Below the pieces are notes generated by a model. The model saw only the letters and a program-made list of their open reading frames with translations, had not been told where the DNA came from and made no database searches. A stretch of 30,446 nucleotides of DNA from Candidatus Hydrogenedentota bacterium (GTDB lineage: Bacteria; Hydrogenedentota; Hydrogenedentia; Hydrogenedentales; SLHB01), in contig BTVY01000060.1 in the NCBI GenBank assembly GCA_045863335.1, positions 1 to 30,446 on the forward strand. Reading direction: 5' to 3'. The position numbers and the translations under genes were made by a program. The stretch's first letter is position 1. Every line of letters starts with the position of its first letter. This document shows, piece after piece, positions 52 to 27,181 of the stretch.

Positions 52-82
52 CCCCCTTCGAAGGGGGATCAAGGGGGATGTT
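52..82. repeat. REP-like palindromic element CCCCCTTCGAAGGGGG followed by a repeated AAGGGGGAT
   Basis: Perfect 16-bp palindrome at 52-67, with AAGGGGGAT at 61-69 and again at 71-79. It overlaps the stop codon of the minus-strand CDS ending at 69 and could also act as a terminator. Confidence 0.5.
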
Positions 83-665
83 CTTTGGCAGTAGTCGCGG
101 TATCGCTTCGCGGCCGCAACCAGTCCGCCTGGGCCCAATAGGCAAGGGCAATCCAGAGCACGAAAGGCAGCGTAATGAAGGCCTGGGCGATGGCGGTCGG
201 TACGACGGGATTCCGAGCCATGGTATCGGCAAAGGCAAAGGCGAGCACCAGGTACACCACATGTCCAGCGGCAAGAACGGCGAATCCGATAGCTGCGATA
301 AGTGCCCGCCGCTTCCAGGCGATGCCGGAAGTCGCAATAACGAGCGCCGCGTAGGTGGCGATATTGCTGACGAGTTGCGCGATCGGCAGCGAGGGGTTTC
401 GCTCTCCCAACTGAAAACCTAAGAGCGTGCCCGTGTTCAGGATGCCCGACGCTTCCACGGTGACACCGTCAATGTCGAACCCGAACGGAAATCGCAGCAG
501 CAACGCTGCGGCATGCCCGATTGCCCAAGCGTACGCAGGCAATACCAGCCACCACAAGGCAAGGCAAACCGGGATGGACAGCAACACGCGGACGGCAAAC
601 CAGAGCAAGCGCCGTATACGGTTGTCGTGTGGCACCTGCTCCGTGTCCGCGCTGCTTTTGCTCAT
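69..665 (-). CDS. Exosortase H-associated (exosortase-like) membrane protein
   Basis: 198 aa with about 4-5 hydrophobic segments. The pattern 'NIATYAALVIAT..IAWKRRALIAAIGFAVLAAGHVV' parallels the exosortase TM core but has no catalytic Cys. Start overlaps the stop of the exosortase gene (ATGA, 662-665). Confidence 0.65.
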   Translation of the reverse strand: MSKSSADTEQVPHDNRIRRLLWFAVRVLLSIPVCLALWWLVLPAYAWAIGHAAALLLRFPFGFDIDGVTVEASGILNTGTLLGFQLGERNPSLPIAQLVSNIATYAALVIATSGIAWKRRALIAAIGFAVLAAGHVVYLVLAFAFADTMARNPVVPTAIAQAFITLPFVLWIALAYWAQADWLRPRSDTATTAKEHPP

Positions 666-2002
666 TCCCGATGTTCTTCTATCGTGGGCGACTTTTGTTC
701 AGATGGACCGGAATCTTCGCGCGCGACCTTCGCCTTCGGCCGCACGATAAACTCGACCCACATAAGCCAAATGATCACCACGAAGACAATATAGACTGCC
801 TGCCACACGTACTCGTGAGCAAAATCGAAGATCTGCCCATTGCCGCTATAGGCCCCGATCAGCGCGAGGCAGGTCAATCGGGCAATGTTGACGCCATAAA
901 GCAGCGGCAGTCCGATGGCCAACCCGACCAAGCGACGCCATAGATCCGTGGGAAAAGCGATCATGGCCGCAAGAAAGATCGACATGCTCGGCAACGCCCC
1001 GCAATCGGGAACCACGTTGAACCGGAATCTGCGATCCTGATCGGCTTCGGCATCGCGGTTCTCCACCGCCTGTTCGCGTGCCGCCTTGATCGACGCGACC
1101 TCGGCCTGCAACGTAGTGATCTCGTCTTCCCCTTTTGATTCGTGCGGGCCTTCCTCGACTGCGCGAAGCCGTGCTTCCGCATCCCGCAACTGGGTGGTCA
1201 GGCCTGCGCTCGCGATGAAGTCGACCGTCGGCCCGTGCCGGTCGTGAACCTGTAACGATAGTTGAACGATCCGGCTTTCGAGATACGTGCGCTGTTGCGC
1301 CAAACCTGCCGCGATCTGCCGTTCCAGGTCATCGAGAAACTCACTCAGTTCGACCCCGTCCGGTCGCTGGCCGCGCTCCAACGCAGCGACAGCAGCTTCC
1401 GAAGACTCAATCAACTGGTTCAGCTCCGGCGACGCGATCTGCATGGTCCCGTTAGGTCCTTCAAAAACGGTGGATTCTCGGAGGCGATTCAGCGACTCGC
1501 GTAGATATCCGATGCGCGTCTCCTTTGAACCGGACACGGGCGCCGGCGGAGACTCTGTCAGCGTTGCCATCTCTCTGGTCTGCGCCAACTGCTGGGCGAG
1601 TAGCAGCGACCGGTATTGCCAGATCTCGTACGGCGCGAGCGGACCCGAATCGTATTCGCCCTCAGGCCGCACCGGAGTGTCACCGCCTTGGCGTGCCGCG
1701 TCGAGCGTCGCGCGTACCGCGGCCGCGCGGTCCCGGTACAGGTTCGGGTCCTCCAACCGGCTGGAGTAGCCAATCACATCCAAGACCCAAGACGTGTGAC
1801 CCGCCACCTGAAAGAGATACCAATTCATGAAGCGCGTGTTGACGGCGTAACGCCCGAGCATCAGCAGCACAATCGTGACTGCCAGGAAAATCAGCACAAA
1901 CGAAATTGCTCCGCGCCGGGCCTTGCCAGAACGCGATTGACCGGACAATGCCGGCTTGGAGTCGGAGCCATCGATCTCTGATTTCGTCTGTTGCTCATCC
2001 AT
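662..2002 (-). CDS. Exosortase/archaeosortase family transpeptidase, XrtH-like, with a large internal insertion
   Basis: The C-terminal core 'FNVVPDCGALPSMSIFLAAMIAFP..WRRLVGLAIGLPLLYGVNIARL...FDFAHEYVWQA' carries Cys334, Arg375 and His396 in exosortase spacing. AHxYVWQA is typical of exosortase H. There is an N-terminal TM at about residues 33-52. Confidence 0.85.
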   Translation of the reverse strand: MDEQQTKSEIDGSDSKPALSGQSRSGKARRGAISFVLIFLAVTIVLLMLGRYAVNTRFMNWYLFQVAGHTSWVLDVIGYSSRLEDPNLYRDRAAAVRATLDAARQGGDTPVRPEGEYDSGPLAPYEIWQYRSLLLAQQLAQTREMATLTESPPAPVSGSKETRIGYLRESLNRLRESTVFEGPNGTMQIASPELNQLIESSEAAVAALERGQRPDGVELSEFLDDLERQIAAGLAQQRTYLESRIVQLSLQVHDRHGPTVDFIASAGLTTQLRDAEARLRAVEEGPHESKGEDEITTLQAEVASIKAAREQAVENRDAEADQDRRFRFNVVPDCGALPSMSIFLAAMIAFPTDLWRRLVGLAIGLPLLYGVNIARLTCLALIGAYSGNGQIFDFAHEYVWQAVYIVFVVIIWLMWVEFIVRPKAKVAREDSGPSEQKSPTIEEHRE

Positions 2003-2228
2003 TGAGAATCTGTCCGAGAGTAGGTTGGGGTACGGTTCGCCGTGAGCATAGCAACTCCAACCGATCCGCTCAACCCATGAGCGATCAACCCCTTACGCAG
2101 ATACCCGGTTTTCGTTACGCCGAAGGACGAGACAGTGAGGATCGTACGTGATGGACGAGAGGCAAACTCCCCGTTATGATGGCGACTGGAAACCGGTCCT
2201 TCCAAATCAAACGACATGGAGAATTCCC

Positions 2229-3482
2229 GTGCGTATTCGCCCGACATTTCAAACGTTCCGCAACACGGCCTTAGCGATCATCATCGCGGCGGCCGTCCTC
2301 GGCGCGACGCCTTCTGCCTGCGCGCGGCCGGAATACGTCTACCTCACCTATCCCGGCGACCCGAGCACGTCGATTACCATCGGGTATCAGACCAAAGATC
2401 TCTCCGAGACTTCCAAGGTCTACTACGACACGCAATCCCGCGGCGGTGAGGTTGAGGCATACGCGCATGAAGCCTCCGGAGTCCAAGTGCGCATTCCGGG
2501 ACTTCCCGCGACGCGGACCATCCATCACGTAACATTGACGGGGCTGGACCCCGGGACCACCTACTACTTTGTGGCCGGCGATGAGGATGGTGGTTTCACA
2601 GGGGAGCGTTCGTTCAGGACCATCGCGGACGATGACGCCCCCCTTCGCTTCGTTACCGGCGGCGATATGGGCGCAACGCGTCAAACCCGCCGGCTCCTTC
2701 GGGTCGCGGCGGAACAAGACCCCGATTTCGCCGTCGTCGGCGGAGACATTGCGTACGCCAACGGCGAACTCAAGGAGTATCGGGACTGGGATCACTGGTT
2801 CAAGAACTGGGACGAACTCATGCGGACCTCCGACGGCCGCATGATCCCGGTAGTCGCGGCCATCGGCAACCATGAGGTGAATGACTCCGACTCGGCCGAC
2901 TGGACTGTGCGCGCGCCCTTCTACTCCGCGTACTTCGAAACGCAGCCCGGCGACACGTACTTCGACCTTGCCTGCGGCGCCAACATGGCCCTCCTGGTGT
3001 TGGACACAGGACACATCGCGCCTCACGATGGCGATCAGGCGACTTGGCTCGATTCGGCACTCGCTGCGCATGCAGAGATCCCCTTTGTATTCGCCGTATA
3101 TCACGTACCTTTCTATCCGAGCCACCGGGACTACGACAGTTCCGGTTCCGAGGCCGGCCGCACGCACTGGGCTCCCCGATTCGATACGCACGGCTTGACG
3201 GCGGCATTCGAGAATCACGACCACACCATGAAGCGCAGTAAACCGATCCGCGACAACCAAGTCGACGAGGATGGCGTACTTTATCTCGGAGACGGGTCCT
3301 GGGGAGTGGTTCCGAGGGACGTCGATAAAGAGCGGCGCTGGTACGAAGCCGTGGCCTTGGGCGTCGGCCATGTCTGGGTCGTCGATGTGTCCTCGGAGCA
3401 GACGAGGTACCGCGCGCTGGATCGCGACGGGATGCTCCTCGACGAAACGACCTCCGCGCCACGGCTAGCCGCCGCAGATTGA
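2229..3482 (+). CDS. Secreted purple acid phosphatase-like metallophosphoesterase (FN3-like N-domain plus calcineurin-like domain)
   Basis: Signal peptide 'RNTALAIIIAAAVLGATPSACA', FN3 'HHVTLTGLDPGTTYYF', and motifs GDMG, GGDIAYANG, GNHE, YHVP and ENHDH. Likely start is GTG 2229 after GGAGA; the ORF is open from 2148. Confidence 0.88.
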   Translation: MRIRPTFQTFRNTALAIIIAAAVLGATPSACARPEYVYLTYPGDPSTSITIGYQTKDLSETSKVYYDTQSRGGEVEAYAHEASGVQVRIPGLPATRTIHHVTLTGLDPGTTYYFVAGDEDGGFTGERSFRTIADDDAPLRFVTGGDMGATRQTRRLLRVAAEQDPDFAVVGGDIAYANGELKEYRDWDHWFKNWDELMRTSDGRMIPVVAAIGNHEVNDSDSADWTVRAPFYSAYFETQPGDTYFDLACGANMALLVLDTGHIAPHDGDQATWLDSALAAHAEIPFVFAVYHVPFYPSHRDYDSSGSEAGRTHWAPRFDTHGLTAAFENHDHTMKRSKPIRDNQVDEDGVLYLGDGSWGVVPRDVDKERRWYEAVALGVGHVWVVDVSSEQTRYRALDRDGMLLDETTSAPRLAAAD

Positions 3483-4427: not shown

Positions 4428-5357
4428 ATGGCAGAAGTGAAACGCGGTTTCTTCGGAAAACTCCGCGACCGGCTCTCCAAGACCCGCGACAACCTTTCCG
4501 GTAGTGTCCGGCGGGTGTTCGGTGGCCGTTCAGTTGTCGACGACGACCTGTTGGAAGAGCTTGAAGAGATCTTTATCGGCGCCGATTTTGGGGTCGAAGC
4601 CACGATGGCGATTATCGAGGACATGCGGGCACTCGCCAAAGAACGGCGCGTGAACTCCCCTGACGCGTTCGTCGACATGTTGAAAGAAGAGCTGACCAAG
4701 ACGCTCCAGCCCGGCAACCACACACTCTCCTGGCAAACCGCTGACGGACCCCATGTTACGCTGATTGCGGGCGTCAACGGTTCCGGCAAGACCACCACCG
4801 CGGGCAAGCTTTCCGCCCACTTGACCCAACAAGGCAAGACGGTCATGTTGGGAGCGGCGGACACCTTCCGGGCCGCGGCCGTCGAACAACTGACGATTTG
4901 GAGCGAACGAACCGGCGTACCCATCATCAAGCACAAGGATGGCGCCGATCCCGCCGCGGTGGCGTTTGACGCGGCAGACGCGGCCGCGTCACGAGGCATC
5001 GATTGCCTGCTGATCGACACGGCAGGACGCCTTCACACGAAGGTGAACCTCATGGAGGAACTCAAGAAGATTCAGCGTGTTGTCGCCAAGCGAGTTCCGG
5101 GCGCGCCACACGAAGTGTTGCTCGTCTTGGATGCGACCACGGGGCAAAACGGCCTCCAACAGGCCAAGGTGTTTACCGAGGCGCTTCACGTCACCGGCAT
5201 CGTGTTGACCAAGCTGGACGGTACGGCAAAAGGCGGAATCGCGGTGGCCATTCAGCGGCAACTTGGAATACCCATCAAGTTGATCGGTGTTGGAGAAGCA
5301 GTCGAGGATTTGCAGCCATTTAACGCCAGGGAGTTTGTGGACGCGATCTTCTCGTAG
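4428..5357 (+). CDS. ftsY: Signal recognition particle receptor FtsY (NG domain only, no long acidic domain)
   Basis: GVNGSGKTTT, DTFRAAAVEQL, DTAGRLHTKVNLMEEL, TKLDGTAKGG and GVGE..EDLQPF. ATG at 4428 follows AGGAG. Confidence 0.97.
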   Translation: MAEVKRGFFGKLRDRLSKTRDNLSGSVRRVFGGRSVVDDDLLEELEEIFIGADFGVEATMAIIEDMRALAKERRVNSPDAFVDMLKEELTKTLQPGNHTLSWQTADGPHVTLIAGVNGSGKTTTAGKLSAHLTQQGKTVMLGAADTFRAAAVEQLTIWSERTGVPIIKHKDGADPAAVAFDAADAAASRGIDCLLIDTAGRLHTKVNLMEELKKIQRVVAKRVPGAPHEVLLVLDATTGQNGLQQAKVFTEALHVTGIVLTKLDGTAKGGIAVAIQRQLGIPIKLIGVGEAVEDLQPFNAREFVDAIFS

Positions 5358-5391
5358 GGGACGACGGGAACTGTTCGCAGCAGGGGGTCTT

Positions 5392-7275
5392 TTGGAGCAG
5401 GCGGAACAGGCAACGCCGCGTCGTTCCTTTATCGGCGCGGCTCTCGTCAAGGACGGGGTGATTACCGAGGCGCAGCTTGCGCGCGCCATACGGATTCAAG
5501 AACTTCTTGAACAACCGCGCCAGCTCGGCGACGTGCTCGTCGAATTGGGGTTCGCGACAAAAAAGGCGATTACCGAAGCCGTGAACCGGCATGGCCGTGG
5601 CATACGGCTGGGCGACATGCTGGTCGAACAGGGTCTGATTTCACAAGATCAGCTCGAAGCAGCGCTCACGATGCAGAAAGAGCGAAGCGTCAGGCTGGGT
5701 GCAGCCCTCATCGAACTCGGCGCCATCAACGAGCGGACCCTTCTGCAAAACCTGGCAAACCAATCGCGATTGCCTTTTATCGAACCCATTTTTGCCATGA
5801 TCGAGCCGAACGTGCTGAGCGGCGTTGCACCCGACTACCTGGCAAAACACGAGTTTATCCCATTCAGTCGAAGCGAAAACGGCCGAATAACCGTGGTCGT
5901 CAACGATCCTTCCGATACCGACTGTATACACGCCGTGCAGGATCTCTTGCGGGCTGAATTCGACATCGCGCTCGGACCCATCGAATCGATCCGGCAGGCC
6001 ATCGAAGACTACCGGTCGTTTCGTACGAATCGTTCGGCGCGGAGCGCCCGGACCGAAGCCGGGGGCGACAGCATCGTCCAACTGGTCAATCACATTATCT
6101 CCTCTGCGGTCGACGAGCGGGCGAGCGACATTCACATTGAACCCATGTCGGACAAGGTCCGCCTGCGCTACCGCATTGACGGCGTCCTCGTCTACAAGAC
6201 CGACCTGCCGCTCGACTTGTTGCCCCGGATCATCTCGCGTATCAAGGTGCTCTCCGAAGGCAACATCACGGAACACCAGCACCATCAAGGTGGACGCTTT
6301 CTCTACACGGTCGGCACCCGCGACTACGACTTGCGGCTCTCCATCTACGTAACCGTCCACGGCGAATGCGCGGTCATGCGCATTCTGAACAAGCAGACGG
6401 GAATCCTCGAACTCGACGAGTTGGGAATGAACCCCACCATGAAGGAGCGATTCCGAACGGACGTACTGGACGTCCCCACCGGCGTGGTCCTGATCACGGG
6501 TCCAACCGGCTCCGGAAAGACGACGACGCTCTACAGCAGCCTCGCGTACAGCAACAAGATCGATACGAAGATCATCACCGCCGAAGATCCGGTGGAATAC
6601 ATGATTGACGGTCTCATCCAGTGCTCCATCTACGACAAGATCGGGCGCACCTTCGAGAGCACCCTGCGCGAGATCGTCCGCCAGGACCCGGACATTATCG
6701 TGCTGGGAGAAATCCGCGATCGTACCACGGCGGAGACGGCCATCCAGGCGGCACTGACCGGACACAAGGTCTACTCCACCTTCCACACGGAAGACACCAT
6801 CGGCGGACTTCTCCGCCTGATCGACATGGACATTGAAACCTTCCTTATTTCGTCCACCGTCATCTCGGTACTTGCCCAGCGATTGCTGCGCAGAATCTGC
6901 ACGGCCTGTGCCGTCCCCCACACGCCCGGACCCCGGGAACTGGACCGGATAGGGTTGACCGTCGAGGAAGTACACGAGTTCGAGTTTAAGCGGGGCCAGG
7001 GGTGCAAACTCTGCAACTACACCGGGTACCACGGCCGCACCGCCGCATACGAATTGCTCGTGCTCAACGAAGAAGTGAAAGAGGCCATTCTGGCCAAGCG
7101 CCCCGCCCATGTGATTCGAAAGATCAGCACCGATACGACGGGGCTAATCAGTATGCGGGAGGACGCCATCGCGAAAACGGTTCGCGGTCTTACCACCTTT
7201 GACGAAGTGCTCCGGCACACGCCGCGAACGTTTGAAATGCGCCGGCTGCGCCAGATTTTGACCATGACTCAGTAA
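5392..7275 (+). CDS. GspE/PilB-family secretion/pilus ATPase with tandem N-terminal MshEN domains
   Basis: ASDIHIEP, RYRIDGVL, Walker A GPTGSGKTTTLY, TAEDPVEY, RQDPDIIVLGEIRD, His box TGHKVYSTFHT and the CxxC...CxxC Zn motif. Four (R/Q/F)(L/I)GxxL(V/I)xxG motifs lie in the N-terminus. Likely TTG start at 5392 after GGGGG; the ORF is open from 5287 but overlaps ftsY there. Confidence 0.92.
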   Translation: MEQAEQATPRRSFIGAALVKDGVITEAQLARAIRIQELLEQPRQLGDVLVELGFATKKAITEAVNRHGRGIRLGDMLVEQGLISQDQLEAALTMQKERSVRLGAALIELGAINERTLLQNLANQSRLPFIEPIFAMIEPNVLSGVAPDYLAKHEFIPFSRSENGRITVVVNDPSDTDCIHAVQDLLRAEFDIALGPIESIRQAIEDYRSFRTNRSARSARTEAGGDSIVQLVNHIISSAVDERASDIHIEPMSDKVRLRYRIDGVLVYKTDLPLDLLPRIISRIKVLSEGNITEHQHHQGGRFLYTVGTRDYDLRLSIYVTVHGECAVMRILNKQTGILELDELGMNPTMKERFRTDVLDVPTGVVLITGPTGSGKTTTLYSSLAYSNKIDTKIITAEDPVEYMIDGLIQCSIYDKIGRTFESTLREIVRQDPDIIVLGEIRDRTTAETAIQAALTGHKVYSTFHTEDTIGGLLRLIDMDIETFLISSTVISVLAQRLLRRICTACAVPHTPGPRELDRIGLTVEEVHEFEFKRGQGCKLCNYTGYHGRTAAYELLVLNEEVKEAILAKRPAHVIRKISTDTTGLISMREDAIAKTVRGLTTFDEVLRHTPRTFEMRRLRQILTMTQ

Positions 7276-7292
7276 TCGAATGGATTGAACAC

Positions 7293-8312
7293 ATGCTCAA
7301 GTGTCCATATTGTGAGGAAGGCGCCCCTTCCCAGACCACGCATGGCGCTTCCGTTCAACTCGCGGCTTGCCCGGCGTGCATGAATCCTTATTACATCGAC
7401 TGGGACGGCCGGCAGGCGCAACGGATTGCCGGCGCCGCGGACATCCGTCAGGCAGCGGCAAAAGGAACCATTGGGGGCGAATTGCTTGCTGCGTTGCCCA
7501 AGGCCATCGAGGACCTTCCGGTACTCCCGGAAGTCTCCACGCGAATCATGGAATTGCTGCGCAGCTCGGACACGTCCATGAAGGATATCGCGGAGACCGT
7601 ACGTCAGGATCAAGCGATTGCCGTAAAGATACTGCAATTGGCGAACAGCGCGATGTACGGCGGGCTCACAACGATTACCGACCTCAGTGCGGGGTGCGCC
7701 CGGCTCGGCACCCGAACCGTCGCCAATGCCGTGCAGACTGTGGCCAATGGTAACCTCTACATCACCAGCAACCCCGCGTTCAAAGACCAAATGCGCCGCC
7801 TCTGGACCCACTCGGTCGCCACGGCGCATTGCGCCAGCGAAATCGCGATGCTCACCGCGTCTCCCCGTTCTGACGCACTGTTCGTCGCCGGCCTGATACA
7901 CGACATCGGGTCAGTCGTCGTGCTGGACATCGTATCGGGTTCCCGGCGGGGCGTCCTGGCGGACCTGCACAAAAGCCCGGAACTGGTGCGCGAAGTTCTG
8001 GAGAGTTACGGCCCCTTGATCGGGTTGCATGTCATCCAGGCGTGGAAACTTCCACCCGAGTTTTCGATGACAACCTACCTGCAGTCCACGCCGGACGCCG
8101 CACCCACGGAAGACGTGCGCGCCATGGTACACATTGTCTGCCTGGCCGGAGCCGTGGCCGAGGTTTCCGGCTTCTCCGTGTACGACGGAGCAACCAGCCT
8201 GCTGAGCCATCCCTCGACGAAATACCTCGGACTAAGCGACATCAAGCTGGCCACCTTGCGCGCCGATCTCGAGGACTCTGTCCGTCCGCTGCTGGAGATC
8301 TCCGCTTCCTAA
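7293..8312 (+). CDS. HDOD domain protein with N-terminal Zn-ribbon
   Basis: 'LPVLPEV...IAETVRQDQAIAVKILQLANSAMYG...ARLG...LWTHSVATA...LFVAGLIHDIG...AWKLP' is the HDOD signature. The N-terminus has CPYC...CPAC. Confidence 0.88.
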   Translation: MLKCPYCEEGAPSQTTHGASVQLAACPACMNPYYIDWDGRQAQRIAGAADIRQAAAKGTIGGELLAALPKAIEDLPVLPEVSTRIMELLRSSDTSMKDIAETVRQDQAIAVKILQLANSAMYGGLTTITDLSAGCARLGTRTVANAVQTVANGNLYITSNPAFKDQMRRLWTHSVATAHCASEIAMLTASPRSDALFVAGLIHDIGSVVVLDIVSGSRRGVLADLHKSPELVREVLESYGPLIGLHVIQAWKLPPEFSMTTYLQSTPDAAPTEDVRAMVHIVCLAGAVAEVSGFSVYDGATSLLSHPSTKYLGLSDIKLATLRADLEDSVRPLLEISAS

Positions 8313-9962: not shown

Positions 9963-9988
9963 TCAATGTGGTTGAGGCGACCCAGACG

Positions 9989-10567
9989 ATGAGCGGGATC
10001 CCGGACTGGGACCTCGTAGCACGCGCGCGCACGGGCGATATGGAATCGTTCGCGCGACTGGTCCGCCGTTACGAAGGCCCCCTGATCCACTTCTGCTACC
10101 GGATGGTCGGCTCCCACCAGGACGCGCAAGATCTGGCGCAGGAAAGTTTCATCCGGGTGTACCGGTATCTGGACCGCCTCAAACCCGAGGCGAAGTTCTC
10201 CACCGCTTTGTTCGGCATGGCTCGAAACCTGACGCTGAACTTTCTTCGGGACACCGGACGGCGAGGGCGCGGTAAACACCGCTCGCTGACCGAAGCCGAT
10301 GATGCGGTGCGCGACATGGCAGATGACTCTAGCAGACCTGACCGGGCAGCGCGGCTGCACGAGATCGAAGGTTTGGTCGAACGAGCTTTGGAGCTGATGA
10401 GTCCCGAACACAAGGAAGTTTTGATTCTGCGCGAGATTCAGGGGCTCGACTACGATGCCATCGCAGCCATTGTCCGTTGCCGTAAAGGAACCGTAAAAAG
10501 CCGGCTGGCCCGCGCGCGGGAACAACTTCGAGCGCGATTGAGCGAACTCGGGGGTGAACTGCTATGA
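9989..10567 (+). CDS. ECF RNA polymerase sigma factor (RpoE/SigW-like)
   Basis: Region 2 'DAQDLAQESFIRVYRYL...FSTALFGMARN' and region 4 'LREIQGLDYDAIAAIVRCRKGTVKSRLARAR'. Start is ATG 9989 or GTG 9968. Confidence 0.93.
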   Translation: MSGIPDWDLVARARTGDMESFARLVRRYEGPLIHFCYRMVGSHQDAQDLAQESFIRVYRYLDRLKPEAKFSTALFGMARNLTLNFLRDTGRRGRGKHRSLTEADDAVRDMADDSSRPDRAARLHEIEGLVERALELMSPEHKEVLILREIQGLDYDAIAAIVRCRKGTVKSRLARAREQLRARLSELGGELL

Positions 10568-11226
10568 ACGACAAACGGTTGAACGAAGAACTCTCGGCAT
10601 ATCTGGATGGCGAGTCGAAAGATACGGCTCGTATTGCGGAGCTGCTGAAGAACGATCCCGAAGCAGCGCGACGGGTTAGCGAGTATTCGGCCCTCTCCGA
10701 GGCGATCAAGGCGCTGCCCGCTCCGGAAGTCCATCCGGCTTTCGCCACGCGCGTGCTGGCACAGGCCCGCGAAACACGACGCGCCTCCGCGTGGAGCCGC
10801 GCACCGCGACTGGCCGGGGGTGCCGTGCTTTCGGCGCTGATCGTGGGCTTCTGCGTGTGGACGATGCTTCCCAGAACGGTCCCGAGTATCCCCCAGGAAC
10901 AAGAGCCCGAGGTTGCCGCCGTATTGGAACTCCGTCATAGCGAGGAACCGTTGGGGCCCTTCGCTTCGCTTATGGACGAGGATTTGCTCGACAGCTCGGT
11001 CGCGTTGACGGAAGGAGATATTGCTCCCTCCGATGAAACCCAACTTGCGGCGGATGAAGCCTCAATGGAATCGGCGGTCGAGAGTATCGTCTGGCTCGCA
11101 TCTGCGGCGCCCTCGGGCTCCGACTCCGACGAACTCGATGTCATGCTTGGCGACTTGGACGATACCGAAATTACCGTGCTCCGCGAATTGCTCGTAGAGT
11201 ACGCCATGGAGGATAACGCAATATGA
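10564..11226 (+). CDS. Membrane anti-sigma factor (RseA/RsiW-like)
   Basis: N-terminal 'EELSAYLDGE', a single TM 'LAGGAVLSALIVGFCVWTML' and an acidic extracytoplasmic C-terminus. Overlaps the sigma stop by 4 bp. Confidence 0.82.
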   Translation: MNDKRLNEELSAYLDGESKDTARIAELLKNDPEAARRVSEYSALSEAIKALPAPEVHPAFATRVLAQARETRRASAWSRAPRLAGGAVLSALIVGFCVWTMLPRTVPSIPQEQEPEVAAVLELRHSEEPLGPFASLMDEDLLDSSVALTEGDIAPSDETQLAADEASMESAVESIVWLASAAPSGSDSDELDVMLGDLDDTEITVLRELLVEYAMEDNAI

Positions 11227-11882
11227 ATCAGCTCGTGAAATTGGGCTGCCTGGTACTTGCCTTCGCCTTGCTACCCGCGTCGGGATTCGCTGAAGAGGAA
11301 GTCTGTGAAGGCGACGCGAAGCCGAAGGACGAATGGCGCGGCGACAAGCCGGACGAATGGAAAGATCAGGAAATTCGCGAGATGGTGACCACGGTTATGA
11401 TGGTTCGCATGTCGCGGGAGTTGGAATTGACGGACGAACAAACGGTACTGATGGTCCGCAATTTCGGCGACCTGCGCGATACACTTTCTGAACTCGGCGA
11501 ACAACGCGGCAACTTGATTGACACCCTTCGCGATAAGGTGGGCAACGACGCTCCCGATGCCGAGATCGAACCCATCCTGGACCAGCTCATGGCGCTGGAT
11601 GAGAAACGGGATACCGTGCGGGAAGAGGCCTTCGAGAAAGCCAGCGCGGATCTGACGGTCGCACAACGAGCGAAACTCTATATTTTCGTTCAAGATTTTG
11701 AGTGGCACATGCGCCGGTTGATTCAGAAGGCCCGCGAGGTGGGCGGCGATCGGGTCAAGCGCTGGCATGACGAAGTCGTTAATGGGGAGGACCGACGCCC
11801 GAACGATTCGCATCACGACGACCAGCAAGACGACCACGAGAAGGCGCAGGATAAGCCTGGCGAGAATCCGCCCAAGCAATAA
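11223..11882 (+). CDS. Secreted Spy/CpxP/heavy-metal-sensor-like helical protein
   Basis: Signal peptide ending ASGFA-EE and two LTxxQ motifs ('LELTDEQ', 'LTVAQRAKL'). Third gene of an ECF/anti-sigma operon with ATGA overlap. Confidence 0.7.
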   Translation: MNQLVKLGCLVLAFALLPASGFAEEEVCEGDAKPKDEWRGDKPDEWKDQEIREMVTTVMMVRMSRELELTDEQTVLMVRNFGDLRDTLSELGEQRGNLIDTLRDKVGNDAPDAEIEPILDQLMALDEKRDTVREEAFEKASADLTVAQRAKLYIFVQDFEWHMRRLIQKAREVGGDRVKRWHDEVVNGEDRRPNDSHHDDQQDDHEKAQDKPGENPPKQ

Positions 11883-11907
11883 CTCCACTCTTGTTTTTTG
11901 CAATCAC

Positions 11908-11944
11908 GCGGACGGTCCCATACGGGTCCGTCCGCAGTCTTTTT
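11908..11944 (+). terminator. Putative intrinsic terminator of the ECF operon
   Basis: GCGGACGG-TCCC-ATAC-GGGT-CCGTCCGC hairpin followed by AGTCTTTTT. Confidence 0.55.
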
Positions 11945-12028
11945 GGGGAAACGGTTGGCCCGGCCCGCCACAGCCTGATACAGTTCTCCTGGCTAGAACG
12001 CTGTACAAAAAAGAAGGAGCGCTTGCCC

Positions 12029-13342
12029 ATGGGAATCTGGCTGATCGTCGCGGTCACCGTATGTTCCGGTCCCGAGTTCTCCATGCCATTGTTGTTGCCG
12101 CAACACCTGGTTGATGCGCAGTCGGTTCATCTGGAACCGCAACGGCCCGAACCCGGCTTGACATTGTTCGAGAAAGATCTGGACCGCCCTTCCCTGTGGT
12201 ACGCGCCGGTCGCGTCGCGGACCTTGGACGACGGCACGATCCAACTCTGGTACCAACGCGTAAACAAGGGCGAGGAGGATTACTTCGATCAGCGCACGCT
12301 GTGCCTGGGTGAGATTCGAGACGGCCGGTGGGTATTGGCCGAGCTGAATCCCGAACCGCCAACCTGGGGCGGCACGAACAACGTCTGCATGCTCCGCTCA
12401 CCGCACACGCCGACCTGGGGCGGATTCAACGTCTTCCAGATCGTCGAGGTCGACGGCGTACTGCAAATGCTCTACTGGGACCAGCCGCCGGAATCGGGCG
12501 ACGCCGGCGCCATGCGCGCGACCTCCACGGACGGGCGAACGTGGGACAAGCAACTCAAAACGGTCTTCACCGAGCACAACGACGCGTACAGTCTCATCTA
12601 CGAGAAGGGCGAATACGTCCTCTACCAAACCGCTCTGGAACCCTGGCCGGACAAGCCGTTCTCGGACAACCTGGACAAATTCAAACGGGTCTTGTCGATC
12701 CGCACATCGGAGGATCTCGAGACGTGGACGCCGCAGGAGATCTTCCTGCGCCCCGATGACCAGGACCCACCCGAGACGGAGTTCTACCTCATGAAGGTCT
12801 TCCGCTATGGAAGCGCCTACGCGGGGCTTATCATGAAGTACTACGCCGACCCGGCGAAGCCGAACGAACACAGCGCCATCCTCAGCAATGAACTTGTCGT
12901 CAGTGAAGATACGCGGACCTGGGAACGCCCGTTTCGCGACACCGACACAGGCTTCTGGAGCTACGCCGATCCCTTCATGCTGGACGGCAAGATGCACTTC
13001 GCCATCTGGAAGGACGGCGGTATGGTGACGGTCGCCTACCCCAAAGACCGGATGGTCGCCGCCGTAGCGGGGGACGAGGTCGGCACTCTTACGACGCAAC
13101 CCTTTGAACGTCCCGAGTCCGGCGGTTTAACGCTCAATGCGGACGCTTCCAACGGCTGGATCGAGGTGGAGTTGCTGGACGGTTCGGGGAAACCGGTTCA
13201 GGATGTGAAAGCGGAACGGATTGAAGGGGTTGACGGCGAAGGGATCGCGCTGAACTGGAACCCCTCTGACTTACCCGCGGATTGCATCCTGCGGGTCCGT
13301 ATGAAGAACGCGCGTCTGTTCGCCGTCGGCGCGCGCCCCTGA
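12029..13342 (+). CDS. Hypothetical secreted beta-propeller protein, GH32/GH43-like fold with a C-terminal beta-sandwich
   Basis: Asp-box-like repeats 'ATSTDGRTW', 'RTSEDLETW' and 'VSEDTRTW'. C-terminal 'LTLNADA..GWIEVELLD..GKP'. ATG 12029 follows AAGGAG. Confidence 0.65.
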   Translation: MGIWLIVAVTVCSGPEFSMPLLLPQHLVDAQSVHLEPQRPEPGLTLFEKDLDRPSLWYAPVASRTLDDGTIQLWYQRVNKGEEDYFDQRTLCLGEIRDGRWVLAELNPEPPTWGGTNNVCMLRSPHTPTWGGFNVFQIVEVDGVLQMLYWDQPPESGDAGAMRATSTDGRTWDKQLKTVFTEHNDAYSLIYEKGEYVLYQTALEPWPDKPFSDNLDKFKRVLSIRTSEDLETWTPQEIFLRPDDQDPPETEFYLMKVFRYGSAYAGLIMKYYADPAKPNEHSAILSNELVVSEDTRTWERPFRDTDTGFWSYADPFMLDGKMHFAIWKDGGMVTVAYPKDRMVAAVAGDEVGTLTTQPFERPESGGLTLNADASNGWIEVELLDGSGKPVQDVKAERIEGVDGEGIALNWNPSDLPADCILRVRMKNARLFAVGARP

Positions 13343-13346
13343 ACGA

Positions 13347-13382
13347 AACACGGCCCGCGAGGTGTCCCTCGCGGGCCGTGTT
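13347..13382. terminator. Bidirectional intrinsic terminator between convergent genes
   Basis: Perfect 16-bp inverted repeat AACACGGCCCGCGAGG / CCTCGCGGGCCGTGTT with a 4-nt loop TGTC, between stops at 13342 (+) and 13407 (-). Confidence 0.85.
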
Positions 13383-13406
13383 GTCATTAATGCCTATTCG
13401 GAACGC

Positions 13407-14309
13407 TTACTCGGCCGCAGCGACCTTCACTTCTTCCGGCTGTTCCGTGGACTCAGCGGCAGCAACTTCGGCCTGCTCGGGGAGCAACACCTGGTCGATG
13501 GCGTGAATGTAACCATTGCTCGCGGCGATATCGGCGCGCACAACATTCGCGGAACCAATCGTGGTCTTGCCGCTCACAGAGCACTGCTTGGCGCCCAGGC
13601 TGGAACATACCGCGCCTTCCTTGGCCAAGTCGGCCGCCGGAATCGCGCCATCAATGATGTGGCGGGCAAGAACAGCCTGCATGGCTTCGTCATCCTGCAA
13701 CAGGGAAGCCCACTGTTCCGCCGGGAGCTTCTGGAAGGCTTCGTTTGTCGGGGCAAGAATCGTCTTCGGCTGCGGGCAGTTCAGCTTGTCCATCATGCCG
13801 GCCGCACGAGCCGCCAAAAGCAGGGTCGAGAACGAGCCGTCCTGGATCGCGGTGTTCACAATGTCCTTCTGGCCGCTGGGGCACACGCCGCCTTCGCAAT
13901 CGCCCTTCTCGGCGACCTGCTTGCCCGAGGTCGGGCAGACACCGCCTTCACAATCCGAGCCCTTGTCGGCAACCTGCTTGCCCGTCAAGGGGCAAACGCC
14001 GTCTCCGCAAGCGCCGTCTTTGGCAAAACCGGCTTCCGTGCCAGCCGTGGTGTTCACGGCAGGCTTCGCAGCGCCATCAGGGCAGCACTCGCCCTTACCT
14101 TCGGCTTTGGCTGCCTTCAGCGAAAGATTGCAGGTCCCCTCGGCTTTCGCGGCCTTGGCATCGGAACTACAGGTACCCTCGGCCTTCGCCGCCTTCCCCG
14201 ACAAGGGACACGTACCATCGCCCGCGGTGGCGATGAAGCTGCCCGCGGCCACGGCCGCTACAGCGAGAAACGACGCGGGCTTCAGAATCTTCATCAGCTT
14301 TTCTTTCAT
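13407..14309 (-). CDS. Secreted fasciclin (FAS1) domain protein with Cys-rich N-terminal repeats
   Basis: Signal peptide, FAS1 motifs 'DIVNTA..GSFSTLL.A..AAG', 'TILAPTNEAFQKLP' and 'ANVVRADIAASNGYIHAIDQVLLP'. AAGGAG SD upstream. Confidence 0.9.
   Translation of the reverse strand: MKEKLMKILKPASFLAVAAVAAGSFIATAGDGTCPLSGKAAKAEGTCSSDAKAAKAEGTCNLSLKAAKAEGKGECCPDGAAKPAVNTTAGTEAGFAKDGACGDGVCPLTGKQVADKGSDCEGGVCPTSGKQVAEKGDCEGGVCPSGQKDIVNTAIQDGSFSTLLLAARAAGMMDKLNCPQPKTILAPTNEAFQKLPAEQWASLLQDDEAMQAVLARHIIDGAIPAADLAKEGAVCSSLGAKQCSVSGKTTIGSANVVRADIAASNGYIHAIDQVLLPEQAEVAAAESTEQPEEVKVAAAE
13869..14210 (-). repeat. Intragenic tandem repeats encoding Cys-rich peptides
   Basis: Three ~39-bp units (KAAKAEG[T/K]) and three ~54-57-bp units (CxxGVCPxxGKQVAxKG), visible at the DNA level, for example 'acctgcttgcccg' twice and 'ccgccttc(g/a)caatc' twice. 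Confidence 0.85.
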
Positions 14310-14490
14310 GTTCGGTGCTCCTTCACAATGTTCGGGAAAGCACAGTGGCCGCCCCTAAGTTCCCAATGATTGCGATGTGTAAACAGCCCGTTACGGCGCA
14401 AACATTCCCGGCCAGTGCCGACAATGGAAGCCCCTTCGACGAGCATCATTCCAGCCTTGCAACCGGGTTTCAGCTTAACACGAATCCGGC

Positions 14491-25950: not shown

Positions 25951-26074
25951 TTTCGAGCATCTTCCGCCGCTCGCGTTGCCCCATCGCCTGCCCACCGCGT
26001 GACAGCCCACCGCGTGGCCGTTGCATCGCAGGGTAGTTCCTCCTTATGATGGGAAGAATCAAGAGGACACCGCC

Positions 26075-27181
26075 TTGCAAGAAGAACCCGTCGGCCTTGT
26101 CAATTGGAGTACGCCCAGCAACCAAACGTTGATTTGGGTCGCGGTGGCCTTTCTCGTTCTTTTGATAGGCGCCTTACTGTTGGAGAAATTCCGGCAGCGG
26201 CGGCAACGCCGCGTGCGCGCAGCAGCCGCGTGGAACAACGTGGAATCCATCGCGAAAGAGAAGGGCTGTTCGACTGAGGAGCTGCGCGTGCTGAGCGCGG
26301 TCATACGCCGCTGGGACCCCGACGATCCCCTGCGCGTTGTTACGATGCGACACGATTTTGACCGCTGCGTAGAGAAGGAAATGGAATCCGTACTGCAGCG
26401 GGGTGACCAGAAGGAGCTGGAACGAACCGGCACCGTGCTGCGAGATATCCGGAGCCGGCTCGCCCTGGATTTTGTGCCCCTGGGACAGCGCATCTACTCA
26501 ACGCGCGAGTTGTACCAGGGCCAGGAGGTGTGGTTAGCCCGCGAGGCGGATAAACCGCCCCGGTGGATCAGGGGATCGATCGCACTTTCCAACGAAGCTG
26601 CGTTCCACGTGGCCCCAAAAGATCCGCTGGATTCCGGCCGTGCCGCGTTCCAGCCGGACGCCCCGTTTCGCTTTCGCCTGTTTCGCGACGAGGATGCGCG
26701 GTACGCGTTCTCCACGCGGTATATCCGACGGGAAAAGGAACCGTACGAGCTGGTATTTCATCACACTTCAAATCTGGACCGCATACAGGCACGGGAACAC
26801 TATCGGGTCCGCCACGAACAAGCGACCAACGTGGGCGTCATGAATGCGCCGCTGGATACCGGTTCGCCGCACCGCGATCGCCGAATCGTGACGCGACTGC
26901 GCGGCCAAATCACCAACATCAGCGCCGGCGGATTCGCGCTTATCGTACCCCAGGCGATCCCGGCTCAAGTCCTCATTCGAGTGACGCTGGAGCTGGAACT
27001 CGAAGCGGCCGAACCCTTCGAAGTGGACGCGCGGATCGTCGGCACGACTCCCCTTCCGGGAGGGCGATACCTCATCCGCGCCGCGTTGTACGAGGAAGAC
27101 AGTGCCAAGCGTGAACTCATCGCCCGGTACGTGGTACACCGGCAGCAGCCCCATCACGAACCGGCTGGACTGACGGAGTAA
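26075..27181 (+). CDS. Membrane-anchored PilZ domain (YcgR-like) c-di-GMP receptor
   Basis: N-terminal TM, PilZ RxxxR 'QAREHYRV' and (D/N)xSxGG 'NISAGG'. Likely TTG start at 26075 after GAGGA; the ORF is open from 26021. Confidence 0.85.
   Translation: MQEEPVGLVNWSTPSNQTLIWVAVAFLVLLIGALLLEKFRQRRQRRVRAAAAWNNVESIAKEKGCSTEELRVLSAVIRRWDPDDPLRVVTMRHDFDRCVEKEMESVLQRGDQKELERTGTVLRDIRSRLALDFVPLGQRIYSTRELYQGQEVWLAREADKPPRWIRGSIALSNEAAFHVAPKDPLDSGRAAFQPDAPFRFRLFRDEDARYAFSTRYIRREKEPYELVFHHTSNLDRIQAREHYRVRHEQATNVGVMNAPLDTGSPHRDRRIVTRLRGQITNISAGGFALIVPQAIPAQVLIRVTLELELEAAEPFEVDARIVGTTPLPGGRYLIRAALYEEDSAKRELIARYVVHRQQPHHEPAGLTE

Follow-up and report, generated by a model that had tools for sequence, protein, structure and literature searches.

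A putative exosortase H-like enzyme of Hydrogenedentota with a predicted modular insertion ahead of its catalytic cysteine

The locus and the exosortase core

The window analysed here is a stretch of 30,446 nucleotides from Candidatus Hydrogenedentota bacterium (assembly GCA_045863335.1, contig BTVY01000060.1, positions 1 to 30,446). Close to its left end the reverse strand carries a gene whose product resembles exosortase H (XrtH) and possesses a large soluble region between its first membrane helix and its catalytic cysteine, followed by a gene for a polytopic membrane protein that is referred to below as the partner (Table 1).

In the translated open reading frame (ORF) the catalytic cysteine is found in VVPDCGA, Arg375 in NIAR and His396 in FAHEY, and Cys334, Asn372, Arg375 and His396 are all invariant in an alignment of 78 relatives. 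The invariance of the Cys, Asn-x-x-Arg and His argues for retained catalysis. Searches with profile hidden Markov models (HMMs) place the protein in the exosortase/archaeosortase superfamily by score. The exo_archaeo signature of NCBIfam (TIGR04178) is matched at 59.6 bits against a cut-off of 23 and the Pfam family Exosortase_EpsH (PF09721) at 31.9 bits against 25.7, while a six-frame search of the genome with the exosortase signature gave 64.2 bits. An above-cut-off signature together with the conserved triad is what the protein has in common with exosortases and archaeosortases in general (TIGR04178, PF09721).

The best specific model is that of XrtH (TIGR04177), which aligns through profile positions 63-153 of 158 only, on residues 325-417. 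Relatives of the window protein score 68.8-84.8 with this model, the insertion-less relative P0085 having 84.8 and the minimal form in genome G039 having 71.6, so that the entire clade, its minimal-insertion member included, lies under the cut-off of 86. The size is also at odds with XrtH, whose profile has 158 positions and a short loop ahead of the cysteine, as the window protein has 446 residues. Because XrtH membership fails on both score and size, the Hydrogenedentota clade is treated here as an XrtH-like sister clade and not as XrtH. No exosortase model was matched by the N-terminal 86 residues alone in an HMM search, so XrtH positions 1-62 could not be mapped, and a sequence search for relatives with a solved structure returned only two chance rows (E 0.024 and 0.82).

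A first-pass annotation of this DNA had described an XrtH-like transpeptidase with an intact Cys/Arg/His core and had remarked that enzymes of the XrtH type are normally small. The HMM matches and the invariance in 78 of 78 relatives bear out the former point, and the 158-position profile and the 188 residues of P0085 bear out the latter. The split alignment to exosortase models that it anticipated could not be traced with HMMs, since only the C-terminal piece (residues 325-417) maps to XrtH and the N-terminal 86 residues match no exosortase model; membership in XrtH proper does not hold. The best overall explanation, and a reasonably probable one, is that the gene encodes an active cysteine transpeptidase of the exosortase family which would belong to a Hydrogenedentota-specific sister clade of exosortase H.

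Table 1. Features of the exosortase-like gene and its partner (window coordinates; AF2, AlphaFold2 model)
Feature	Position	Strand	Evidence
Whole gene, XrtH-like exosortase with insertions that are probably periplasmic	662..2002	-	ATG-started ORF, 446 residues; HMM matches
Basic, probably cytoplasmic tail (6 Lys/Arg) and membrane helix 1, residues 1-53	1844..2002	-	Hydropathy 27-57; AF2 helix 24-53; mean Kyte-Doolittle 2.31 over 33-53
Conserved amphipathic helix, residues 57-77 (NWYLFQVA.HT motif), probably interfacial and not membrane-spanning	1772..1834	-	AF2 helix 57-77; mean hydropathy 0.51, hydrophobic moment 1.22
Meander strand beta1, residues 80-83, then invariant Glu84	1754..1765	-	AF2 strand; Glu84 invariant
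Module A1, residues 86-134: helix, loop, conserved P-L-T-x-W-E-x-W-x-Y-R motif	1601..1747	-	Alignment with relatives
Module A2, residues 135-256: four-helix bundle and small beta-hairpin (179-188)	1235..1600	-	AF2 helices 124-148, 160-176, 192-209, 219-255; long forms only
Strand beta2, residues 257-265 (G-P-x-V-x-F)	1208..1234	-	AF2 strand 259-265; Gly257-Pro258 invariant in 78 sequences
Module B, residues 266-323: antiparallel helical hairpin	1034..1207	-	AF2 helices 268-284, 291-314
Strand beta3 and exosortase catalytic membrane domain, residues 324-422	737..1033	-	TIGR04178 over 328-416; XrtH over 325-417; AF2 strand 324-329 and helices 336-349, 354-386, 389-420
Catalytic Cys334 codon	1001..1003	-	Invariant in 78/78 aligned relatives; position checked in translation
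Arg375 codon (N-x-x-R motif)	878..880	-	Asn372 and Arg375 invariant
His396 codon	815..817	-	Invariant
Partner gene, 198-residue polytopic membrane protein	69..665	-	Start overlaps exosortase stop by 4 nt

The region ahead of the catalytic cysteine

On the Kyte-Doolittle scale a single strong hydrophobic segment (residues 27-57) precedes residue 330 and three follow it, and a soluble region of about 250 residues lies between membrane helix 1 and the catalytic cysteine. Asp, Glu, Lys and Arg make up 29% of residues 80-325, with a net charge of -15. The whole protein was modelled with AlphaFold2 on the 78-sequence alignment and the isolated insertion on a 48-row alignment. The model of the whole protein has a mean predicted local distance difference test score (pLDDT) of 89.6 and a predicted template-modelling score (pTM) of 0.83; the insertion alone has a pLDDT of 94.7 and a pTM of 0.82, and displays the same elements as in the whole model. 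Helices are predicted at residues 24-53, 57-77, 86-104, 124-148, 160-176, 192-209, 219-255, 268-284 and 291-314, followed by membrane helices at 336-349, 354-386 and 389-420. The four peptides quoted in the first-pass annotation as heptad-like (133-146, 223-252, 268-284 and 295-314) all fall inside predicted helices. Strands are predicted at 80-83, 179-182, 185-188, 259-265 and 324-329, so helices or heptads alone do not make up the soluble region.

The mean hydropathy of the membrane helices is 1.7-2.3 and that of helix 57-77, in which Tyr62, Leu63 and Leu74 are invariant among the 78 sequences, is only 0.51. Lys and Arg number six in the N-terminal tail, two in the loop 350-357, none in the loop 386-390 and six in the C-terminal tail. 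Hydropathy and predicted helices fit four spans and one amphipathic helix, and the distribution of Lys and Arg fits an outward-facing cysteine. From a cytoplasmic N-terminus, the chain would cross the membrane in one outward span, continue in an interfacial amphipathic helix and then form the meander and modules in the periplasm, reaching the cysteine at the outer face before three further spans return it to a cytoplasmic C-terminus. The cysteine of exosortases acts on exported substrates. Since the positive-inside rule applies and the cysteine must face exported substrates, the meander and all three modules probably lie on the periplasmic side, immediately over the active site.

By the model and the alignment with shorter relatives, the insertion consists of three separable modules placed in the two turns of a three-stranded beta-meander that leads to the cysteine. 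The first turn holds A1 and A2 (residues 86-256) and the second holds B (residues 266-323). A1 occurs in the majority of relatives, and within it Arg97, Pro121, Glu126 and Trp128 are nearly invariant; strand beta2 aligns with the P-R-C-F-F-L of the insertion-less P0085. The very large soluble region claimed by the first-pass annotation is thus supported by the ORF, by hydropathy and by AlphaFold2. Its further proposal of a single coiled-coil appendage gives way to modules inserted at two points of the meander; in the model, a single chain packs them into a four-helix bundle and a hairpin. A profile-profile comparison finds a resemblance between module B and the second half of A2 (probability 86%, E 4.8e-6 over 47 columns; window 1034-1600), which hints that they are related helical modules that arose by duplication, a similarity that helical composition alone could also explain.

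Searches for known relatives of the fold gave no domain to which the insertion could be assigned. No Pfam family is matched over its cut-off by the isolated insertion, the sub-threshold rows being Baculo_PEP_C (16.1 bits against 38) and KIF21A_4th (12.7 bits against 33.1), and neither the whole model nor the insertion gives a Foldseek row at E <= 0.001 against the PDB. The best rows of VIA-align against 48,161 chains have Z 9.4 for the whole model and Z 9.2 for the insertion, in a range (Z below about 13) that is uninformative for helical bundles; residues 131-255 are matched by designed or generic helical bundles and residues 266-316 by short hairpins, and one row is a chemoreceptor sensor domain with a root-mean-square deviation (rmsd) of 9.7 A. 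The ESM Atlas yielded no usable match by features, and its structure rows all have a template-modelling (TM) score below 0.5. A match to a domain known from exosortase fusions, which the first-pass annotation had named as grounds for abandoning its proposal, was absent from these four resources. In the model the insertion is made up of a four-helix bundle, a small sheet and a helical hairpin; a new fold cannot be claimed.

The whole protein is matched in 36 of 41 related genomes, with orthologues at 86-89% identity within the same genus. A collection of 5.8 billion proteins provided 81 relatives of 269-564 residues, and the catalytic cysteine is at residue 178 or beyond in every one of them. 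The names given by the sources are Candidatus Hydrogenedentes or Hydrogenedentota, except for one labelled 'bacterium', and one fused relative is likewise named Hydrogenedentes; the database labels of these proteins go no further than 'hypothetical protein' or a generic family name. A profile of the insertion only, built from eight sequences (window 1025-1768 and seven further loci), has 101 matches at E <= 0.001 among 1.84 billion representative proteins, and 91 of these contain the exosortase catalytic domain. The remaining ten, inspected by eye, comprise six that look like fragments at contig ends, two that look frameshifted near the end, P0148, which has a J-domain-like start and is cut off at its end, and P0174, whose match is weak (E 2.7e-4). 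The same profile is matched in 95 of the 135 genomes of the phylum (68 of the 86 high-quality ones), other families of the order matching it only at positions 1-60 and 177-240. Because 91 of the 101 matches carry the catalytic domain and 95 of the 135 genomes match, the extra region appears from its sequence relatives to be confined to this exosortase clade and widespread there, in answer to the search with the insertion alone that the first-pass annotation had proposed.

As a separate observation, several of the enzyme matches in genomes G011, G027, G040, G022, G007, G031, G037 and G034 are reported with one or two in-frame TGA codons, which may be frame junctions, sequencing errors or recoding.

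The modules occur in several combinations. Among eight proteins found in a search for shorter relatives, most appear by eye to be contig-end fragments, and P0085 alone looks complete. Over the catalytic part, where the best local alignment lies, P0085 is 59% identical to the window protein. It has the same two N-terminal helices and three strands and lacks A1, A2 and B, both turns being 4-5 residues long, whereas those of the window protein have about 170 and 58 residues. In G039, which belongs to the same order, the minimal form keeps a PWESW remnant of A1, lacks B and has a partner gene downstream. Thus, the insertion-less P0085 and G039 forms share with the window protein the N-terminal helix pair and the three strands before the cysteine and differ from it in the turns. 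A1 and B are present and A2 is absent in P0038, P0051 and P0078, the last of which has a reduced A1; P0033 has A1 and A2 and lacks B. A rough count based on regular-expression anchors, found in 147 of 182 proteins from a sample that is biased through its collection with the window protein as query, assigns 68 proteins to a mid-length A with B, 39 to a long A with B (the type of the window protein), 24 to a long A without B, five to a minimal A and one to a mid-length A without B, with 10 unclassified. A FastTree phylogeny based on core columns only (131 rows, many forks unresolved) implies at least seven changes of the A state and at least nine of the B state.

The downstream partner and candidate substrates

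The partner gene is directly downstream of the enzyme gene in all 11 related loci. A match to the XrtH_assoc model (NF041730) at E <= 0.1 is found for eight of 10 partner orthologues, below the cut-off in each case (best E 2e-7), and the G039 partner matched no model in the HMM search. In eight of the collected relatives (P0034, P0036, P0101, P0136, P0137, P0155, P0175 and P0177) enzyme and partner form a single polypeptide, with the partner after the catalytic domain, and in the one-contig genome G035 the fusion is present as a 502-residue ORF (L029:969-2477, minus strand). The partner looks obligate; it and the enzyme probably work as a unit, and the natural fusions are the strongest evidence here that they act together. 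A comparison of partner and enzyme with hhalign (probability 25.7%, E 7.4e-4) lays the partner over the catalytic helices with an Ala opposite Cys334, and in fused proteins phmmer places secondary stretches of the partner on the catalytic region. These alignments faintly suggest that the partner could be a dead paralogue of the enzyme.

Two side observations concern the partner. Frames in sister family f13 are about 500-513 residues long, which suggests that the fusion is fixed there, and one partner orthologue (L006:3064-3624) has one stop codon within the aligned frame, which may likewise be a frame junction, a sequencing error or recoding.

Candidate substrates were sought among 4,952 non-overlapping ORFs of the genome, which were screened for C-termini in which a hydrophobic helix precedes a basic tail. 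The screen gave 100 candidates, among which six large proteins (800-1415 residues) with (V/L)-P-x-x-x-x-(W/G) just before the helix were chosen by eye, and an HMM made from their six tails added two ORFs (E 5.8e-6 and 0.0024) for a set of eight. All eight candidates have N-termini that resemble signal peptides, and seven of them contain Pfam domains of kinds common in surface, extracytoplasmic proteins, including subtilase with P-domain, PhoPQ-related, beta-propeller, leucine-rich repeat/Kelch/cadherin and immunoglobulin domains, with one lacking any. The search of the proteome for a shared C-terminal motif, transmembrane helix and basic tail, which the first-pass annotation had proposed, yields these (V/I/L)-P-type proteins. 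Six tails from sister families have the form (V/I/L)-P-(L/A/V)-A-(G/S), a helix, and then RRRK or a similar Arg-rich end.

The IPTL_CTERM model (TIGR04174) matches five of the 14 tails scanned, one at 22.1 bits, over the cut-off of 20.5, and one at 19.1 bits. Within this genome one tail reaches 21.5-22.1 bits and another 18.4-19.1 bits, and the other six candidates give no match. Seven of the 14 tails match the midcut-by-XrtH sorting region below its cut-off, and other sorting-signal models give scattered weak matches. Among the genomes of the family, the tail profile finds a match in 27 of the 36 with the enzyme and in five of the 18 without it; several of the latter are incomplete, and one (G016) has an N-terminal enzyme fragment at a contig end. 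The eight exported proteins with a divergent IPTL-CTERM-like tail are putative substrates.

The genome also encodes a second, canonical exosortase of 519 residues, with an EpsH-type membrane domain and a C-terminal EpsI-like part (genome G000, contig C2, about 262.5-265.8 kb; L001:796-2355, minus strand). Seven PEP-CTERM matches over the cut-off are found in the genome, four of them on contig C48, and these proteins and the 519-residue exosortase plausibly form a separate pair. The gene for the second exosortase is flanked by genes for tetratricopeptide-repeat proteins.

A larger conserved cassette extending beyond the partner was considered and rejected, the rest of the window being housekeeping or unrelated genes. 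Divergent from the exosortase gene is a gene for a purple-acid-phosphatase-like metallophosphoesterase whose N-terminus forms a membrane or signal segment (window 2148-3482, plus strand). It is adjacent to the exosortase gene in only three of 11 loci and for that reason probably lies outside the unit. Further along the plus strand, positions 5287-8312 encode a GspE/PilB-type secretion ATPase that contains an MshEN domain and, after it, an HDOD protein. An extracytoplasmic function (ECF) sigma factor and an RseA-like anti-sigma gene are followed by three ORFs of 219, 483 and 335 residues that have no Pfam match at E <= 1e-4 (9968-14369), and a PilZ-domain protein lies at 26021-27181. MshEN and PilZ are modules that bind cyclic di-GMP.

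Possible functions of the insertion

The enzyme and its partner probably cleave a small set of large exported surface proteins, and probably re-anchor the cleaved proteins to an acceptor. The sorting signal would comprise (V/I/L)-P-x-x-x-x-(W/G), then a hydrophobic helix and a tail rich in Arg. Most likely, the insertion would serve as a folded cap or docking platform on which bulky cargo is recognised or positioned beside this signal, or as a gate that controls access to the cysteine; an oligomerising coiled coil is less likely. A more ambitious version, which we put forward only tentatively, is that of a distinct exosortase subfamily with its own (V/I)P-x-A-G or VP-x-x-x-x-W signal, in which a modular periplasmic tower would be a built-in domain for substrate recognition or gating and the partner would be catalytically dead and, in some lineages, fused to the enzyme.

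Several points weigh against this picture. The window protein scores 74.1 bits (E 1.2e-20) with the XrtH model of NCBIfam, below the cut-off of 86, and its partner scores 24.1 bits with XrtH_assoc, below the cut-off of 35. The strong tail scores in this genome are circular because the tails were picked by eye and then used as the seed. The association of enzyme and tail has exceptions in both directions, with nine genomes that have the enzyme and no tail match and five that have the tail and no enzyme; G039, which has the minimal enzyme, gives no match to the tail profile; and the counts are not independent across kin, one genus accounting for eight of the 18 enzyme-less genomes. The second, EpsH-type exosortase could process some of the tails. 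The repeated gain and loss of modules indicates that they are evolutionarily labile and dispensable for the basic reaction, their periplasmic placement is indirect, and no experimental test of any exosortase of the clade, or of any XrtH, was found in the literature searched.

It is possible, though unlikely, that the insertion is instead a device for oligomerisation or reach, whose helices would pair between subunits or contact an outer-membrane or export machine across the periplasm. The region is rich in helices, some of them long (helix 219-255 has 37 residues), repeated helical hairpins typically show profile similarity of the kind seen between module B and the second half of A2 (probability 86%), and there is a weak Foldseek row to the periplasmic adaptor EmrA (E 0.066, TM 0.19). 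That row is not significant, however, even the longest helix falls far short of crossing a periplasm, and the single-chain arrangement in the AlphaFold2 models is well defined (pTM 0.82-0.83) and is matched by the fold searches to a four-helix bundle and a hairpin. A true exosortase that acts on PEP-CTERM proteins or something else, and not on the (V/I)P-type tails, has a still smaller chance of being correct. The seven PEP-CTERM matches over cut-off would provide such substrates, the tail set is small and was selected by eye, and G039 has the enzyme without a tail match. The canonical 519-residue EpsH/EpsI-type exosortase is nevertheless available for the PEP-CTERM set, and apart from that set inspection by eye found a single recurrent class of motif, transmembrane helix and Arg, namely the (V/I)P tails, which resemble IPTL-CTERM, the XrtH signal.

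That the protein is a pseudo-enzyme or scaffold which has lost sorting, with the insertion as its functional part (for example, a four-helix-bundle periplasmic sensor), seems very improbable. The top VIA-align row for the isolated insertion is the ligand-sensing domain of the chemoreceptor McpZ (Z 9.2), and the sensor domain of PcaY_PP appears at Z 7.0, but the McpZ alignment has an rmsd of 9.7 A and a Z in the uninformative range for helical bundles, the protein has no output domain, and the Cys, Asn-x-x-Arg and His are conserved without exception. An artefact, either an assembly chimera (a concern of the first-pass annotation) or a miscalled fusion of a soluble gene and a small exosortase gene, is hardly credible despite the unusual length of the protein and the origin of many relatives from short metagenomic contigs, as five other genomes of the genus have this frame without interruption (48-89% identity), relatives also come from contigs of up to 347-856 kb, the insertion is conserved across the phylum beside the catalytic domain (95 of 135 genomes), and the flanking strands beta1, beta2 and beta3 are common to the insertion-less form.

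The closest known system is that of exosortase H (TIGR04177, NF041730, TIGR04174), with which the enzyme has several features in common. XrtH is the top specific model for the catalytic domain, the core is a minimal single unit with the Cys/Arg/His triad, the gene overlaps that of a downstream membrane partner (here a weak XrtH_assoc match), and the candidate tails resemble IPTL-CTERM and the midcut-by-XrtH sorting region. In contrast to that system, all three components are under the curated cut-offs here, with the exception of one tail; three modules add about 230 residues between the cysteine and the second helix of the window protein; the N-terminal part of the protein matches no model; and some lineages of the Hydrogenedentota clade have fusions of enzyme and partner. 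The exosortase H tail has the form IPTLxxWG, compared with (V/I/L)-P-x-x-x-x-(W/G) here and (V/I)-P-(L/A/V)-A-G in sister families. Exosortases of the XrtA/EpsH type, to which the 519-residue exosortase of this genome belongs, have eight transmembrane helices, with several more before the cysteine, and often a C-terminal EpsI domain, whereas the extra mass of the window protein is soluble, helical and probably periplasmic.

No description of an exosortase in Hydrogenedentes or Hydrogenedentota was found in a literature search, among the papers matched for exosortase H one preprint alone concerned that enzyme, the terms XrtH, IPTL and Hydrogenedentes do not occur in a preprint on myxosortase, and neither a library model nor a publication was found that describes an exosortase with a large insertion before the cysteine. 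The layout, for which the first-pass annotation had suggested novelty, is apparently common to one little-studied phylum and not yet described, and recognising it fills an annotation gap for proteins that now carry generic or 'hypothetical protein' names. Exosortases are widespread, and their chemistry, acceptor and choice of substrate are largely uncharacterised. What the clade offers is a soluble domain at the active site that is predicted to fold with confidence, forms that range naturally from insertion-less to three-module, and natural fusions of enzyme and partner. These are ready-made constructs for probing the surroundings of the catalytic cysteine, the need for the partner as a subunit and the recognition of cargo, and the soluble domain could aid crystallisation or cryo-electron microscopy of an otherwise tiny membrane enzyme. 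If the clade is indeed a distinct subfamily with a recognition tower, it would represent the first exosortase with its own cargo-selecting module.

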